A stretch of 64,000 nucleotides of DNA from a virus (Duplodnaviria > Caudoviricetes). The position numbers and the translations under genes are program-made. The stretch lies in the IMG/VR virus record IMGVR_UViG_3300014205_000172, positions 128,001 to 192,000 of that record. One strand, given 5' to 3'. The notes under the pieces were generated by a model, which saw only the letters and a program-made list of their open reading frames with translations, was not told the DNA's origin and did no database searches. This document shows, piece by piece, positions 24,511 to 30,765 of this stretch (positions are counted from its first letter, which is position 1; each line of letters begins with the position of its first letter).

Positions 24511-24867
24511 ATGTTTGACACTATCCTGTTCACACTCACCCTCGTTATGCTTCTGATCATCCTGGTATCCGGCTGGGCTATGTTCAAGTTCGGCACTCGG
24601 CCAGCTCAAGTAATTCAAGACGTCTGCAGTTTGATGACGTACAGCCTCGGCAGCAACAACAAACAAACTCTGGCCTGTAACGTCGCCCTCGCCGTAACGT
24701 TGGTAGCCTTCAACTTTGCCTGGCCTGTGCCAATGTACACCACGCTGATTGTATCGACCTGGGCAGTCTGCTGGGTCGTTCAACTGATCGTTCGTATGAC
24801 CACTGGCGAAGAGTTCGGTAACATGAACGAGTTCGGCTTCAAGATGGTAAAGGTCATCTGGAAGTAA
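24511..24867 (+). CDS. Multi-pass membrane protein
   Basis: AGGAGG SD; about 3 hydrophobic segments. Confidence 0.8.
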   Translation: MFDTILFTLTLVMLLIILVSGWAMFKFGTRPAQVIQDVCSLMTYSLGSNNKQTLACNVALAVTLVAFNFAWPVPMYTTLIVSTWAVCWVVQLIVRMTTGEEFGNMNEFGFKMVKVIWK

Positions 24868-24868
24868 A

Positions 24869-24913
24869 ATGTATGGGGTCTTCGGACCCCTACATCCCCT
24901 CTTCTTTTTTTTT
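24869..24913 (+). terminator. Intrinsic terminator
   Basis: GGGGTC-TTCG-GACCCC followed by long T tract. Confidence 0.8.
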
Positions 24914-24929
24914 GTTTAAGGACAGCGAT

Positions 24930-25925
24930 ATGCCCAGTTCCAGCATTAAGCAATATAAGCTCATGATGTTTGCCGCTATGAATGCGGACTTTGCAAAGAA
25001 GAAGGGGATCGATCAGAAGGTCGCTAAAGAATGGCACGAAGCTGACGAGAAAAAGAAGAAGGAAGATCCACAGTGGTTTTACCACCTGCCTGATAAATTT
25101 GAAAAGAAGAAGAAAGAACATACTGAATCTATGGAAAGCTTGAGTTCCTTCTTCGGTAAGTTCTTTGGGTCCGGTGCGTCAATCAAAGGCACGCCCCAGC
25201 AAGTCGAACTCAACTACGTCAAGAAGCTGTTTAAGGATGCACACCTTCTGGATGAGATCGTATTAAAGGAAGGTAAGATCGATACCCCGAACATTAACCA
25301 CCATTTGCTGCTGCGTCATTTTAATGAACGCACTTGGTTGAGCGATCTTGAAAACGGTGTTTCGCAAATCACCAACTACGCGCAGCAGTTCTTTAAAGCA
25401 CGCGCGAGTTACGCGGGTGAAATGCACACGATCTACAAGAAATGCGAAACACTGGAGCCAAAGGCCGCGCTCGATTACGCCGTCAAAGCTACGGCCACGG
25501 CTAAGCGTAAACTGGATGCAATCTCGCCGCCTAAATTCATCTTGGCTATCGACACAACCAAACTCGAACATGGGTATAGGTTTGTAGTCGGTGACTTGGG
25601 TCAGAGCCCGCATTACATGAATGCACTCACTAAAGGCCAAGTTAAAAAAGTCCTTTCTTTACTCCCCCATCTGTTTCGTGTGGATAGCGATACTTTTACA
25701 GATGATGAAGATGACGATTTGTTGTGGACGTTAGACGACACGGATGAAACCAAATGGTGGTCGAACAAATACCCGGATGATGATCACGTCTGGGGAGAAA
25801 TGCTGAACCTCTTCCCATGTGCTGGTGATTTCTACGAGTACGAATACGAAGATGAGCTCAACGGCATCGTGGCCAAGATCCGTAATGGCTGCGAAGAACT
25901 GATTAACAAATCGGTAAAGATGTAG
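24930..25925 (+). CDS. Probable capsid-internal (protease-processed) protein
   Basis: AAGGA SD before ATG 24930; basic N-domain (MPSSSIKQ..FAKKKGI), then ESMES site and LSSFFGKFFG helix. Confidence 0.65.
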   Translation: MPSSSIKQYKLMMFAAMNADFAKKKGIDQKVAKEWHEADEKKKKEDPQWFYHLPDKFEKKKKEHTESMESLSSFFGKFFGSGASIKGTPQQVELNYVKKLFKDAHLLDEIVLKEGKIDTPNINHHLLLRHFNERTWLSDLENGVSQITNYAQQFFKARASYAGEMHTIYKKCETLEPKAALDYAVKATATAKRKLDAISPPKFILAIDTTKLEHGYRFVVGDLGQSPHYMNALTKGQVKKVLSLLPHLFRVDSDTFTDDEDDDLLWTLDDTDETKWWSNKYPDDDHVWGEMLNLFPCAGDFYEYEYEDELNGIVAKIRNGCEELINKSVKM

Positions 25926-26023
25926 GGTCCTACGCTAAGGAAAGTAAAGGACCCTACAAAGAAGGAAACGATAGTACGTTCAACCACCAAGGAAAGGTTT
26001 ATAGAGTTGATGATTTACTCTAC

Positions 26024-26281
26024 ATGACAGCCAGAGCTAAAGCGCACCCATTTGAATTATCAAAACTCAAATGGATGCTAACAGGTGAAAAGATAGATCA
26101 GGCGCGTGTCGACCGAGCTGATAAGTCTATTCCTGTTATTGTCACAGAGTACGAACCAGGTAAGTTTGTCACGATGGATGGTTTTCATAGGGTGGTGAAG
26201 GCGATTCAGGCTGGGGATAAAACCATACCTGCTGTCGTTGTGTCTAAAGCGATGGTCTCGCAGCTACCCGAAGTCAAATAA
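26024..26281 (+). CDS. ParB/Srx N-terminal-like domain (frame open from 25907; possibly a frameshift extension of the upstream gene)
   Basis: PVIV...MDGFHRVVKA motif; no clear SD at 26024. Confidence 0.65.
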   Translation: MTARAKAHPFELSKLKWMLTGEKIDQARVDRADKSIPVIVTEYEPGKFVTMDGFHRVVKAIQAGDKTIPAVVVSKAMVSQLPEVK

Positions 26282-26284
26282 ACA

Positions 26285-26319
26285 CATAGAGCCAGCTCCG
26301 CAATGGAGCTGGCTCTATG
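26285..26319. terminator. CATA-hairpin-TATG element
   Basis: CATAGAGCCAGCTCC-GCAAT-GGAGCTGGCTCTATG. Confidence 0.8.
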
Positions 26320-26332
26320 CTGTCAAGTGTTG

Positions 26333-26348
26333 TACAGTAATACATTAT
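26333..26348 (+). promoter_or_regulatory. Putative phage early promoter
   Basis: TACAGTAA-TACATTAT. Confidence 0.6.
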
Positions 26349-26384
26349 CCAACTGACTTATATCCCACTACAAGGAACTCTGCA

Positions 26385-26792
26385 ATGCGTCCAAATCACA
26401 AAGCTATCTATTCTTCCCGCACTGCTGACAAGTTTGTACTGCGCCTCCCTGATGGCATGCGCGAAGTAGTTGCCGAAGCCGCCCGTGCGAATCATCGGAG
26501 CATGAACTCTGAATTGATTTCTCGGATTGAAACAAGCCTCATGGAAGATGAGAAGAAAAACAACCCGGCCATTCACATTGATACAGGTTCCGGCGTGACC
26601 ATGCCTGTAGTCGATGCCTGGACTCCGCGCATTGGCATGCTGATCTGCTTTCGCCTGGACATTAAGAAGGTAGGTAACATCCTGGACTTTGAGACGGCCG
26701 ATGACGGCACCATCTGGGCTGACTTGGATCTGCTTGACGGTAATCAAGTAAGCGCTCCGATCAGTCATCTCCAACCTTTCGTTTGCACGTAA
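26385..26792 (+). CDS. amrZ: Arc-family ribbon-helix-helix regulator, AmrZ (AlgZ) homologue with a different C-terminal domain
   Basis: MRP..YSSRTADKFVLRLPDGMRE..A..AR..HRSMNSE closely matches the Pseudomonas AmrZ N-domain; AAGGA SD. Confidence 0.88.
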   Translation: MRPNHKAIYSSRTADKFVLRLPDGMREVVAEAARANHRSMNSELISRIETSLMEDEKKNNPAIHIDTGSGVTMPVVDAWTPRIGMLICFRLDIKKVGNILDFETADDGTIWADLDLLDGNQVSAPISHLQPFVCT

Positions 26793-26854
26793 TTGTAACT
26801 TGTTAATAACACTGCCGATCGTATAACCAAAATCTATCGGCAGGGGCAAGAAGC

Positions 26855-27523
26855 ATGCATAAAGGTCTGTTTGTAGCATTCGAGGGTATTGACGGTACCG
26901 GTAAAACTACTCAGCGGAACATGACCGCCGATCGCTATGAGAAGGGGACTATTGAGGTTACTCGCACACTTGAGCCAGGCGGTACTCAGCTGGCCATGCA
27001 GCTACGTGACATTATAAAGTACTACAAAGATGAAACCATCTCTACGGTGGCTGAGGCCATGTTGTTCTACACCGCCCGAGAACTTCATCTGACAAACGTT
27101 ATCCGCCCCCATTTGGCTGAGAATAAAATTGTTCTCTGTGACCGTTTTGCTGACTCCACAGAAGCTTATCAGATGGCCGGTGGTAAGCTGGATCAAGCGT
27201 TTCTTCAAGTACTTCGTAAAACTGTGGTTGGTGATACCGAGCCTGATTTGACGTTTGTGTTTGTGATGGACATCGATAAGGCGTTTGCCCGGGCTGGTGA
27301 ACGTGGTGAAAGCTGTCGGATGGAAGGAAAGGGCCGTGATTACTACATTGCCGCTCAGCAACACTTCGTGAAACTGGCACATCAACCTAACTCTCCGACC
27401 ACTTACGTCATCATCGATGCCGATCAGTCAATCGATGTCATCAATGAAAAGATCTGCGAAGAAGTGGCAAGAGCATGGGATCGTAAACATGGACCTTTGA
27501 TCAAACCACTGGTTCTCAATTAA
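26855..27523 (+). CDS. tmk: Thymidylate (dTMP) kinase
   Basis: FEGIDGTGKTT P-loop, EPGGT, LCDRFADSTEAYQ, PDLTF motifs. Confidence 0.95.
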   Translation: MHKGLFVAFEGIDGTGKTTQRNMTADRYEKGTIEVTRTLEPGGTQLAMQLRDIIKYYKDETISTVAEAMLFYTARELHLTNVIRPHLAENKIVLCDRFADSTEAYQMAGGKLDQAFLQVLRKTVVGDTEPDLTFVFVMDIDKAFARAGERGESCRMEGKGRDYYIAAQQHFVKLAHQPNSPTTYVIIDADQSIDVINEKICEEVARAWDRKHGPLIKPLVLN

Positions 27524-27557
27524 CTAACTTACTTAATAGACATTCTGGAGTCTTTTA

Positions 27558-28248
27558 ATGGCAAAGCCTGAAGTTACAATCGCAATCGACAAAGCCGAAG
27601 TGTTCTACCGCCTCCCGGCCAACGCCGAAGGTCTGATTGAAATGGATGTACGTCGGTTTCTTAAAGACGTATCTCGGTTTGGTTCGGTTCAGGAACGCGA
27701 GTTGCTGGAAAACGATCGTACCAAGCTGCACCCAATCAATTACAACGCGGTTGTTCGCGTAACACACATCGACGAAGAAGCCCAGCGTTTTGAGTTCCTC
27801 GTTTATCAGCGACCTAAAAAAGGGTAATGGCGAGTCCCGCCTGTCTGAAAACCATTCCATCGGTATCGGCGGACACCCAGATCGCGCTGATGTGGTTTAC
27901 AACAGCAATGACTCACTGAACCTATTCGCGACTGCTGTCGCTGGCGCTAAACGCGAGAATAGTGAAGAAGTAACTCTTTCTGAAACACCTTCGCAACTTC
28001 GTTTTCTCGGGTTGATTTATGATCCAAGTAACGATGTAGGCCGTTACCATCTTGGCCTGTTCGGCATCTTGTTCGTTAGTGCCGAATGCACAGCCACATC
28101 GAACGAAAATCAAATCCTCAATCCTCATTGGGTTGATGTCGATGCCATCTCTGACGCTGGTTATAACTTCGAAAGCTGGTCGGCCATCATCCTGGCCGGG
28201 TTGAAAGCGTCTGACCTTCGGAGTGGCGCTATCTCCGCACAAGTTTAA
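27558..28248 (+). pseudogene. Nudix-fold phosphoesterase (YmaB/COG4112-like) split by a +1 frameshift at 27816-27827
   Basis: N-half ends YQRPKKG*; C-half continues NGESRL..SIGIGGH..RE..EE..VGRYHLG..FESWS. Confidence 0.75.
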
Positions 28249-28253
28249 CAATA

Positions 28254-28280
28254 AAGCACGGGCTTCGGCTCGTGCTTTTT
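28254..28280 (+). terminator. Intrinsic terminator
   Basis: AAAGCACGGGC-TTCG-GCTCGTGCTTTTT. Confidence 0.85.
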
Positions 28281-28298
28281 GCCCTTTAAAGGATAGAC

Positions 28299-28544
28299 AT
28301 GCAACAGACTAAAGTTGCGTCATTAATAGAAACGGTGTTTGGCACGGCAGCTGGTCTGATCGTTGGCGTCCTTACACAGCTCGTGATATTTCCTTGGTAC
28401 GGCATCAACGTCCAGTTTCACGATAACCTTTCCATGGTAGTGATCTTTGCCGCCGTTGGCATGGTTCGGACATACGGCGTACGCCGACTCTTCAACGCAG
28501 CCCCTTGGCGCAAATTTAAGGAACGTAGAAATGCGAGCAATTGA
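28299..28544 (+). CDS. Small two-TM phage membrane protein
   Basis: SLIE..LVIFP.YG..RTYGVRRLFN pattern common in phages; AAGGA SD. Confidence 0.75.
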   Translation: MQQTKVASLIETVFGTAAGLIVGVLTQLVIFPWYGINVQFHDNLSMVVIFAAVGMVRTYGVRRLFNAAPWRKFKERRNASN

Positions 28545-30765
28545 TAGTCAGTACAAAGACATTTATCGCTTCATTAATCAACACGGCCTGGACAAAGGCG
28601 ACCGCACTGGCGTGGGTACTCTTTCTGCGCTGGCTGGTTGGATGCGTCATGACCTGCGTGATAACCGTCTGCCGATTACCTCTCTGCGCGTTATCCGACC
28701 AGAGAAGTTCATCCACGAAATGCTCTGGTTCGTGTCGGGCAGCTCCAGCATCAAGTACCTGAAAGACAACAACGTCGGCATCTGGGACAGCTGGTTCATC
28801 CCTGGTACTGACAAGTATGAAGAGCCCGTACCTTACACAGTTGACGAACTGGCCAACATGTACGTCGACGTACATGGCGTCATGCCGTTCACGATTCTGT
28901 TTCAGGCAGTTCCGGCTAAGCCTTCTTTTGAAGAGCTGCAGTCGGCGCTCATCCTTTCGGGCATTCCAAAACGTTACTGGCAGACAATGATCGAAGATGA
29001 GTTCTCCGGTAAGGAATATCCGGTCGATCCTCAAGATCTTGAGATTAATGTCAGGAACGGTGCTTTGAAGGTCACCATGACTCGTTTCCAGGGCGTTCTG
29101 CTCTGCTGCTCGATCATGAAGGATTTGGGTTGCGGCTACATCAATCCAAAAGCCGGCGGTCCAAACCGTCCTATGTACGATGTAATGGTTGATGTCCTCA
29201 ACAAGTTTGCAACACAGCCTGGGTATGTCAGTAACGGTCAAGAAATAGCCGCTAAAACAAAGATCGATCTTTTTAATGATCTGGTTTTCTGTATGGGGGT
29301 TGATCAAGGCACCGACATAGAGGAAGAGCAGTATGCCAGAAGCGTCCTGGCTAAACTGAGTCCCGAAGAAGAAACTACTTATCGCGAACTGGCGGCCAAA
29401 GCGGGCGTTTCGACTACCGTAGTGCCCACGCCAACGGTACTTGGCTTCCGCGAGCGTATCAAGAAAGCCCATGCTCAAGGTCTGGAACAAAAGCTGTACG
29501 AGTTCTGCGATTATAAAGAAGGTCTGGTTCGGGATACAACCAGTAACATGTACGCCGAGTTGAACGTCGAACTCTGTCCGTCGATCACTGGTCCGTGGGA
29601 CTTGTTCCAGTCCGAAGTTGACCAAATCAATGACTGGCTGACAAAGCACAACGTTCCTTCTGAAATCACACACCCTGCTGTGAAGCCTGTATCCCTCCAG
29701 ACTCGCCTCAATCGTGTCTCCAAGAACGATAAAGAAAAGTGGGACAAGATCAACGCAGTGATCGACGAACCGTGGGAGAACCTTGCAGAGAGCACCACAG
29801 GTAAGTCCATCCTGGAAGCGGGTGAACTTGTTAAGATTGAGATCTTCAAAGACGGTAAGTTCCAGAAGGTCGAAATCCGCAACATCGTGGCGGCTTGCTT
29901 GCACATCACTCTTACTGAACTGGGTATCAATCAGTACAAGCTGATTGACGCCGACATTGGTAAGGGCGCTTACGGCCCGCAATGGCGTCACTATCAAGAT
30001 ACACAGATTGTGGACGTATCCGAGATGGCTGCGTTTAAAGAGAAGGGTTACGGTTATATCACCGAAGTTACCGAGGGTGATAATGGAGACGGTTTCTACG
30101 GAAAGGCCGTCATGCATCGAGAAATCGATCAGCTGCAGAATGCTATCGATCTGCTCAAGAAGGACCCGGACAGTCGGCGCATCTACGTGACTTCCTGCAA
30201 CCCAGGTACTAACTGGCAAGCAGCGCTGGAACCATGCCATCTGTACTTCCAGTTCGTCAGCTACGAGAAAGACCTGCGTGACTTCGAAGAAGACTTTGCC
30301 AAGCTTGACCTGACTGGCGAATACATCGATGCGTTCTCGGCCAGTGACTTGTCTCATAGCGATGAAGATCGTGATGAAGATGAGTTCCTTAAGCTAGCGA
30401 AGGAGTTTGCCGCCAGCAAAGGCGTCCCTACTCGCTGGCTCAGTATCGCAGTAGTACTACGTAGTTGGGACGTCCCAGCCGGCGGGGTCTTTAACACACC
30501 TCAATACGCGGTGCTGACCCGCATGGTTGCTGAGGTGGTCGGCATGGAAGCCCGTGAGATGTTTATCATGGGTGTAGATAGCCACATTTATGAAAACCAA
30601 AAGGAGCTCGTTGACGAAGTCATCTACACTGACTATCAAAACGATAATCCTCAACTGCACATCACGCGCAAGGTTACCAACATCAGCGATTTCAAAATCG
30701 ATGACTTCGTAATCACCGGGTACGATCCAGTGCCAAACACGAAGGTGATGCCGATCGCGCGTTAA
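28531..30765 (+). CDS. thyA: Thymidylate synthase (ThyA) with very large insertions, 744 aa
   Basis: DRTGVGT, EMLWF, IWDSW, YGPQWR, IDQL, PDSRR, LEPCH (catalytic Cys), RSWD, FN, DSHIYENQ motifs. Confidence 0.93.
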   Translation: MRAIDSQYKDIYRFINQHGLDKGDRTGVGTLSALAGWMRHDLRDNRLPITSLRVIRPEKFIHEMLWFVSGSSSIKYLKDNNVGIWDSWFIPGTDKYEEPVPYTVDELANMYVDVHGVMPFTILFQAVPAKPSFEELQSALILSGIPKRYWQTMIEDEFSGKEYPVDPQDLEINVRNGALKVTMTRFQGVLLCCSIMKDLGCGYINPKAGGPNRPMYDVMVDVLNKFATQPGYVSNGQEIAAKTKIDLFNDLVFCMGVDQGTDIEEEQYARSVLAKLSPEEETTYRELAAKAGVSTTVVPTPTVLGFRERIKKAHAQGLEQKLYEFCDYKEGLVRDTTSNMYAELNVELCPSITGPWDLFQSEVDQINDWLTKHNVPSEITHPAVKPVSLQTRLNRVSKNDKEKWDKINAVIDEPWENLAESTTGKSILEAGELVKIEIFKDGKFQKVEIRNIVAACLHITLTELGINQYKLIDADIGKGAYGPQWRHYQDTQIVDVSEMAAFKEKGYGYITEVTEGDNGDGFYGKAVMHREIDQLQNAIDLLKKDPDSRRIYVTSCNPGTNWQAALEPCHLYFQFVSYEKDLRDFEEDFAKLDLTGEYIDAFSASDLSHSDEDRDEDEFLKLAKEFAASKGVPTRWLSIAVVLRSWDVPAGGVFNTPQYAVLTRMVAEVVGMEAREMFIMGVDSHIYENQKELVDEVIYTDYQNDNPQLHITRKVTNISDFKIDDFVITGYDPVPNTKVMPIAR

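Follow-up and report, generated by a model that had tools for sequence, protein, structure and literature searches.

A probable -1 programmed frameshift joining a ParB/Srx-fold domain to a virion-protein-like carrier in jumbo phages

The 64,000-nucleotide stretch of phage DNA analysed here (positions 128,001 to 192,000 of IMG/VR record IMGVR_UViG_3300014205_000172; the window) carries a gene for a 331-amino-acid protein, termed the carrier, whose 3' end overlaps a reading frame that lacks an initiation codon and codes for a domain of ParB/sulfiredoxin (Srx) fold. Sequence comparison makes it likely that this domain is not the product of an independent gene and that a conserved -1 programmed frameshift produces it as a C-terminal extension of the carrier. 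Such a frameshift was proposed in the initial annotation of the stretch and is now supported by homology, by purifying selection and by the overlaps found in related phages. The window is part of a 237,171-bp single-contig phage genome with 49.6% G+C. The elements of the unit are the following (window coordinates; aa, amino acids):

24930..25925, + strand: carrier gene, 331 aa, C-terminal end ...INKSVKM followed by TAG
25128..25136, + strand: S-M-E (carrier residues 67-69), candidate prohead-protease site ending an N-terminal leader, in a disordered segment
25913..25919, + strand: predicted shift site G_GTA_AAG, with A_AAG (25916-25919) as the element conserved at 13 of 13 start-less junctions
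25916..26281, + strand: -1 frame after the shift, 121 codons and a TAA stop; linker, then ParB/Srx-fold domain
25921..25958, + strand: hairpin with an 11-bp stem and a 16-nt loop, probable frameshift stimulator
25923..25925, + strand: zero-frame stop TAG, one codon past the shift site and within the 5' arm of the hairpin
25934..25942, + strand: A-K-E in the linker, candidate protease site for release of the domain
25955..26278, + strand: ParB/Srx-fold domain (PHROG 17560), from the invariant Tyr to the C-terminus, with DGFHR near the C-terminal half
26024..26026, + strand: first ATG of the -1 frame, without a Shine-Dalgarno (SD) sequence, residue 37 of the structural model; the Met is not kept in relatives
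26284..26320, unstranded: 16-bp palindromic hairpin closing the unit, whose equivalent directly follows the carrier stop in homologues that lack the domain

The start-less frame and its ParB/Srx-fold domain

The -1 frame is open from position 25907, immediately downstream of a TAA codon at 25904-25906. It contains no ATG, GTG or TTG before 26024, a distance of 39 codons, and no SD-like sequence lies within 20 nt upstream of the ATG found there. Inspection of the frame and of this upstream region thus bears out the initial annotation, and the coordinates agree with the overlap it placed in the -1 frame of the carrier gene end.

The start-less stretch had also been said to read like protein, a view with which several comparisons agree. 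PHROG 17560, a profile of 119 positions, aligns with the open frame from residue 14 (E = 2.5e-21), while its alignment with the open reading frame (ORF) started at ATG 26024 begins only at profile position 47. A tblastn search matched 41 jumbo-phage records and many of the alignments begin at query residues 2-23. Four of the 12 residues invariant in a ten-sequence alignment (A2) precede the first ATG (Y6, E8, T13 and Y21 in the numbering of that alignment) and sit in the motif Y-x-E-G-x-x-S-T-F-x-H-x-G-K-x-Y; the free-standing homologues of phages Xoo-sp14, EL and Parshik begin just 5' of this motif. Selection and substitutions were assessed against L006, an independent metagenomic contig with 94% amino-acid identity to the window. 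The ratio of non-synonymous to synonymous substitution rates (dN/dS) over 25916-26023 is 0.09 in the -1 frame versus 1.76 and 1.18 in the other two frames. These sequence comparisons indicate that the 39-codon stretch is coding, under purifying selection and homologous to the N-terminus of the domain family.

The sequence read after the shift would start with the linker K-D-V-G-S-Y-A-K-E-S-K-G-P-Y-K-E-G. An example of a -1-frame peptide that would be made from the stretch upstream of the ATG is DVGSYAK in the window, within the predicted junction ...SVK-DVGSYAK; VTTSNEAYSEGPDSTFTHMGK, encoded upstream of the annotated Met, would be another in phage D6.

The AlphaFold2 (AF2) model of the post-shift protein, built on 33 sequences, has a predicted local distance difference test score (pLDDT) of 84. 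Its first 11 residues are disordered, and two strands and a helix (residues 21-37) precede the Met of 26024, so that initiation at this codon would remove beta1, beta2 and alpha1 of the domain. The best Foldseek matches in the PDB are sulfiredoxin, SbnI, Noc, KorB, ParB, PadC and a free serine kinase (SerK); the top matches listed all have the ParB/Srx fold, with probabilities near 1.0. A profile search of PDB sequences retrieved SbnI (E = 4.5e-5) in an alignment spanning the DG.HR motif, whose residues D88, G89, H91 and R92 are invariant in the 33 sequences. The label ParB/Srx-like given in the initial annotation is thereby confirmed by profile and fold searches and, on the structural model, the domain is a ParB/Srx-fold module. 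It shares the fold and the DG.HR motif with the superfamily that includes sulfiredoxin, the SbnI/SerK kinases and the N-terminal domains of ParB, Noc and KorB, but it lacks the context of the Srx catalytic Cys and has a family-specific N-terminal hairpin, Y-x-E-G...S-T-F-x-H.

The domain forms a single unit of ~105 aa without helix-turn-helix (HTH) or dimerisation domain. It has no match in Pfam at E <= 1, ParBc included, and neither the carrier nor the domain protein could be assigned with significance to a family of Pfam or NCBIfam; a match to PHROG 1033 is marginal (E = 0.002-0.0045). A ParB partition protein was considered and rejected on account of the missing Pfam ParBc match and HTH domain. 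Its fold is enzyme-like, presumably with a nucleotide-dependent activity. Its family comprises 658 clusters at 50% identity (E <= 1e-10, searched against 1.84 billion representatives), of which the best 150 all begin within the first six positions of a 108-position profile. Free-standing forms, in-frame fusions and fusions by predicted recoding are known.

Shift site, hairpin and their occurrence in relatives

The carrier gene ends with TCG GTA AAG ATG TAG. The GTA_AAG singled out in the initial annotation (25914-25919) is present there as part of G_GTA_AAG. Z_ZZN is the minimal -1 site and NNA_AAG sites were studied in Escherichia coli, G_GGA_AAG and C_CCA_AAG being highly shift-prone; an incidental -1 shift takes place at Bacillus subtilis cdd (A_CGA_AAG) while IS1222 makes productive use of G_CGA_AAG (PMC5009743).

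Ninety loci from phage records and IMG/VR, and then 11 from metagenomes, were scanned with the domain profile and scored for a start codon before the N-terminal motif. Thirteen distinct start-less junctions were found: the window together with L006, the isolates D6, Psa21 and RVTF4, and nine metagenomic contigs. In every one of them the domain lies in the -1 frame of the upstream ORF, which ends in NNA_AAG directly followed by TAA or TAG; the window and contig L142 have one extra codon before the stop. The codon preceding AAG is GTA, GGA, GAA, CCA, GCA, TCA or AAA, so that the encoded amino acid varies but the third base is always A. At six of the 13 junctions the heptamer is a canonical one (G_GGA_AAG, C_CCA_AAG or A_AAA_AAG), with G_GGA_AAG used by D6, L143 and L142. 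As an estimate of chance occurrence, in-frame A_AAG amounts to 0.42% of codons in the window's genome and is the last or penultimate codon in only 4 of its 217 ORFs of at least 150 aa; A is also the rarest third-position base (16.6% of codons).

The linkers of the frameshift-type junctions all feature S/A-x-E shortly upstream of the invariant Tyr, at a distance of two to five residues (13/13), in the variants AKE, SNE, SQE, SVE, STE, SLE, SKE and SME. This motif is absent between the start and the invariant Tyr of the self-starting forms inspected. Loci L046 and L139, of the same clade, have their own SD and ATG and no A_AAG. Comparison of homologues, which the initial annotation had put forward to tell fused genes from a conserved slippery site, found A_AAG at all start-less junctions and in-frame fusions elsewhere (phages PA5oct and FLC4-3B). 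A blastn search of the region against phage records and a scan of metagenome contigs with a single protein query gave no match, and no annotation or published description of this frameshift was found.

The arms of the window hairpin, TGTAGGGTCCT (25921-25931) and AGGACCCTACA (25948-25958), pair perfectly. Its minimum free energy is -23 kcal/mol (z = -4.87) and none of 200 dinucleotide shuffles folds as well. Stimulators are usually placed ~5 nt from the shift site, and the GC-rich 7-bp core of the stem (from 25925) taken alone has this distance, 5 nt downstream. Between the window and L006 there is no substitution in 25890-25967 (78 nt), whereas the remaining 323 nt of the domain ORF have 47 (p = 0.003 in a Fisher test of 25914-25958; p = 0.003-0.004 for the unchanged block, whose flanks are ~10% different). 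A_AAG and the hairpin are accordingly conserved at the nucleotide level, more than coding alone would demand. The 3' arm encodes K-G-P-Y, the invariant Tyr included, so that the 5' arm, in the linker, was evidently shaped to pair with it. Inspection by eye revealed no pseudoknot with the hairpin loop. A conserved RNA structure 3' of the shift site was sought in the D6 group and not found; the hairpin is therefore specific to the window lineage. In D6, Psa21 and RVTF4 the adjacent stop codon, slowly decoded, is probably the stimulator, and it is the only candidate in most relatives.

In the proposed mechanism a fraction of ribosomes would slip back by one base on A_AAG (25916-25919). The tRNA-Lys on AAG would re-pair with the overlapping AAA, after which decoding would continue at GAU. 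The slip would be stimulated by the hairpin: while GTA occupies the ribosomal P site, the first four, AU-rich pairs of the stem would already have entered the mRNA channel and the 7-bp core would stand at its entrance. This resembles bacterial NNA_AAG frameshifting (cdd, IS1222, dnaX with A_AAA_AAG) in the A_AAG element, the re-pairing of tRNA-Lys on AAA, the position of the site near the zero-frame stop, the 3' hairpin of the window lineage and the canonical heptamers of several relatives. The bacterial cases differ in the proteins concerned, here a head-protein-like carrier and a ParB/Srx domain, and no upstream SD-like stimulator was seen at the phage site. Similarly to the G/GT-type tail assembly chaperone of phage lambda, a conserved -1 shift near the end of a gene of the phage structural module would yield a C-terminally extended minor product, and G_GGA_AAG of D6, L143 and L142 is also the lambda heptamer. 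Unlike in G/GT, no tail gene is involved, the appended part is an autonomous enzyme-like fold known in free-standing form as well, and the role proposed for the shift is loading of cargo.

Other routes to the domain were weighed against the frameshift, which accounts for the data far better than any of them; each conflicts with several independent observations. One is a separate protein initiated at a non-AUG codon in the linker and coupled to termination of the carrier, by non-canonical initiation or by termination-reinitiation. The close overlap of the upstream stop and the open frame is indeed reminiscent of translationally coupled genes, and the same-clade forms with their own ATG (L046 and L139) mean that a separate protein is functional. 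The start-less junctions have, however, no ATG, GTG or TTG and no conserved ATT, ATC, ATA or CTG before the invariant Tyr, with the exception of an ATG in L141, and neither the persistence of A_AAG through seven penultimate codons nor the invariable -1 frame would be explained; this route is considered unlikely. An ordinary small gene starting at ATG 26024, with the open stretch untranslated and the hairpin an unrelated RNA element, is very unlikely. It would use the only canonical start, as do the equivalent short ORFs annotated by gene callers in D6, Psa21 and RVTF4, but the ATG lacks an SD, its position is not conserved (where the D6 group has its Met, the window and L016 have Gln in the alignment), the 85-aa product would be deprived of the four invariant residues and of three secondary-structure elements, and the low dN/dS is precisely that of the sequence upstream of the ATG.

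It is slightly less probable still that the domain ORF is a decaying remnant that lost its start, and then its expression, after insertion behind the carrier. The module of the window lineage does look inserted between the carrier stop and a terminator-like hairpin, yet the ORF is intact in 13 of 13 junction types, dN/dS values are 0.03-0.09, and all family-invariant residues are kept, DG.HR included. A sequencing or assembly error, with one base missing from what is truly an in-frame fusion, would find precedent in the in-frame fusions of PA5oct and Ralstonia phage FLC4-3B. This is the least credible of the alternatives: the junction is identical in the independent contig L006, the -1 arrangement recurs in three sequenced isolates and at least nine metagenomic contigs, the zero-frame stop is kept, and no homopolymer longer than AAAA is present at the site save for a run of seven A in L016. 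Transcriptional slippage was rejected since A runs do not exceed four in any junction other than that of L016.

Carrier proteins and a possible route into the capsid

The frameshift, if it operates as predicted, would attach the domain to a protein whose helical N-terminal module of ~45 aa is joined to a folded C-terminal body by a disordered Lys-rich linker. The start of the carrier was placed at 24930 because the PHROG match begins at residue 20 of a longer ORF. Eight homologues have 29-78% identity to the carrier; P0003 (78%) ends in ...SVA and P0004 (64%) in ...SVKM, as in the window. Seven carrier loci (25-58% identity) have no ParB/Srx ORF. The carriers without domain end with GTG AAG TGA, ATC AAG TAA or GTC AAA TAA and are directly followed by a terminator-like hairpin, the counterpart of the hairpin downstream of the domain in the window. 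The domain was therefore inserted between the carrier stop and this hairpin. The GTG AAG of domain-less carriers is not slippery, and the slippery A (GTG to GTA) is seen only where the -1 ORF exists. No carrier paralogue was found in the same genome, and in sequence the carrier resembles neither the D6 carrier nor the N-terminal half of the PA5oct protein.

The initial annotation described the carrier as capsid-internal. For the D6 group this is well supported by sequence: its carriers match the internal-head-protein PHROGs 8282 and 6807 (E down to 6.5e-11) and are surrounded by genes of this type. For the window's own carrier the assignment has moderate support, from the N-terminal motif, an S-x-E after a disordered linker and fold matches. 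The PHROGs of the N-terminal motif are annotated as virion structural proteins, 121Q gp51 being an example. In the AF2 model of the carrier (pLDDT 76.6) residues 58-88 are disordered, and its matches in BFVD are jumbo-phage 'virion structural' and 'internal head' proteins (E down to 1.8e-6). S-x-E is found at one alignment position in 9 of 9 carrier homologues (SME, STE or SFE), which speaks for presence of the motif, not for its cleavage. A-X-E is the protease motif of phage SPN3US, and S-x-E sites include SLE-13 of phiKZ gp93 (PMC5694885). The A-K-E of the linker, which the initial annotation had compared to the phiKZ head-protease site, gains support as a candidate site from the S/A-x-E present in all frameshift-type linkers. 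The PA5oct homologue is an in-frame fusion of 249 aa annotated 'structural protein, ESI-MS/MS'. Like a second PHROG 17560 paralogue of the window's genome, which has an in-frame leader in common with the adjacent gene, it fits the proposed role as cargo.

A route into the cell can be proposed from these features. The N-terminal part of the carrier would bring the fusion into the prohead, the head protease would cut S/A-x-E of the linker and free the domain inside the capsid, and the domain would then be ejected with the DNA. Taken jointly, loading, cleavage and ejection make a coherent scheme, argued from analogy, whose chances we judge to be close to even. A broader reading, to which we give slightly less than an even chance, is that jumbo phages have a Gag-Pol-like device in which the A_AAG frameshift sets how much of a nucleotide-binding ParB/Srx enzyme becomes attached to an internal head protein. 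The freed enzyme would enter the cell with the genome and act in the first moments of infection. In this tentative scheme the device would have arisen on at least two unrelated carriers, the window family and the PHROG 8282/6807 proteins, and would alternate in evolution with free-standing and in-frame-fused forms.

As in retroviral and totiviral Gag-Pol, a -1 shift at the end of a structural gene would extend some of the structural protein by an enzyme domain. In Gag-Pol the fusion reaches the capsid through its structural part and has a viral protease site at its junction; packaging and cleavage are here inferred. The lineage and the proteins are unrelated, and the virus is a double-stranded DNA phage. 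The S/A-x-E at leader and linker positions, the membership of D6-group carriers in internal-head-protein PHROGs and the proposed release of cargo inside the head recall the internal head (ejection) proteins of phiKZ and SPN3US and the internal proteins of T4 with a capsid-targeting sequence. The cargo of phiKZ, SPN3US and T4 is in frame with its targeting leader, while here it would be joined by recoding. The mechanism itself is known; what would be new is the use of recoding to equip a head protein with an autonomous enzyme-like cargo, and its recurrence on unrelated carriers.

Several observations weigh against this interpretation. At the shift site, the heptamer of the window fits only the minimal Z_ZZN form and not the canonical one; re-pairing of the P-site tRNA-Val on GGU is poor and efficiency may be only a few percent. 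The initial annotation was right in describing a perfect 11-bp helix that covers the TAG, but the spacing of the full stem, which begins 1 nt after AAG, is not ideal. The window lineage consists of two sequences only (the window and L006), and the phage, in whose 237,171 bp no tRNA gene was found, would depend on the tRNA-Lys set of its host. In all phages compared the trans-frame product is a prediction from sequence. Concerning the carrier, the similarity of residues 1-45 to the N-terminal motif PHROGs 16759, 22033 and 25121 is weak (E ~1e-6), as are the fold matches to phiKZ-type virion proteins (TM 0.3-0.5). Its neighbours are early and nucleotide-metabolism genes, with no cluster of head genes. 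Phage Xoo-sp14 has a free-standing homologue of the domain between dTMP kinase and ThyA, much like the window, and a cytoplasmic, non-virion role would also suit this neighbourhood.

If the proposed frameshift and its role are true, they would define a new class of phage programmed frameshift, beside the tail-chaperone and capsid-variant cases, that supplies the head with a fixed proportion of enzyme-like cargo. In at least three isolates (D6, Psa21 and RVTF4) the annotation would need correction, the domain being called in them as a 'hypothetical protein' of 93-96 aa from a non-conserved internal Met; these phages are cultured and the prediction is thus directly testable. The ParB/Srx-fold family would stand out as a recurrent virion-associated module of giant phages, either free, fused in frame (also to an RNA-polymerase beta'-like protein) or recoded. 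The natural A_AAG sites, stop-adjacent or hairpin-assisted, would be useful for study of minimal -1 shift sites.

Related junctions, domain contexts and neighbouring elements

In contig L141 (2489-2494) the middle residue of the linker S-x-E is Met, encoded by ATG, directly 5' of the domain. This junction could be an evolutionary intermediate toward a self-starting gene. The ParB/Srx ORFs closest to that of the window (55-58% identity) are found in L136 (2380-2500) and L135 (1317-1430) and have their own ATG. Their frame is also open 33-36 codons upstream, where it overlaps a PHROG 3841 gene in the -1 frame. Around the stop of this gene, a block of 36 nt is conserved but for one substitution amid diverged flanks, and it contains C_CCT_TTG, one codon and TAA, with a -1 linker that features S-N-E. 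The PHROG 3841 gene with C_CCT_TTG is a possible third type of carrier and shift site.

The ~45-aa motif found at the start of the window carrier (24930-25070, PHROG 16759) heads unrelated proteins in many phages, among them 121Q gp51, a small ORF of EL, proteins of Serratia and Escherichia jumbo phages and of a 39-kb Stenotrophomonas phage. It is also found on dozens of IMG/VR contigs of 4-25 kb. These small contigs were suspected to be microviruses, but the one inspected (L100) showed no such sign. The motif may be a portable targeting or DNA-binding module.

In Ralstonia phage FLC4-3B (L008, 809-2824) a protein of 671 aa, annotated 'putative RNA polymerase beta prime subunit', ends with the domain (~110 residues), and its gene is directly upstream of a beta-subunit gene. 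In four IMG/VR loci (L025, L027, L030 and L039) the domain is contained in proteins of 840-1640 aa. In the window (25907-30765) and in Xoo-sp14 (L007) the ParB/Srx-like gene lies at most ~2 kb from the genes for dTMP kinase and thymidylate synthase; this common neighbourhood could point to a nucleotide-related activity.

The region upstream of the carrier (24866-24929) contains a GC-rich terminator-like hairpin with a T9 run (GGGGTC TTCG GACCCC, 24875-24890, read on the + strand). It ends ~17 nt 5' of the carrier SD and ATG and is preceded by TGTATG. Being so near to the carrier start, it implies that the carrier promoter must be upstream of, or overlap, the terminator-like element.

Outside the window, the genome codes for another PHROG 17560 protein, a paralogue 262 aa long (E = 2.6e-7), at 209,332-210,117 on the minus strand of the contig (G000:C1; L146:333-1118). 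This protein has an in-frame N-terminal leader, ...RKTLLAIAMES, and an A-S-F-E linker before its C-terminal region. The adjoining gene, of 372 aa, has a nearly identical N-terminal leader, ...KTMLAIAMES.

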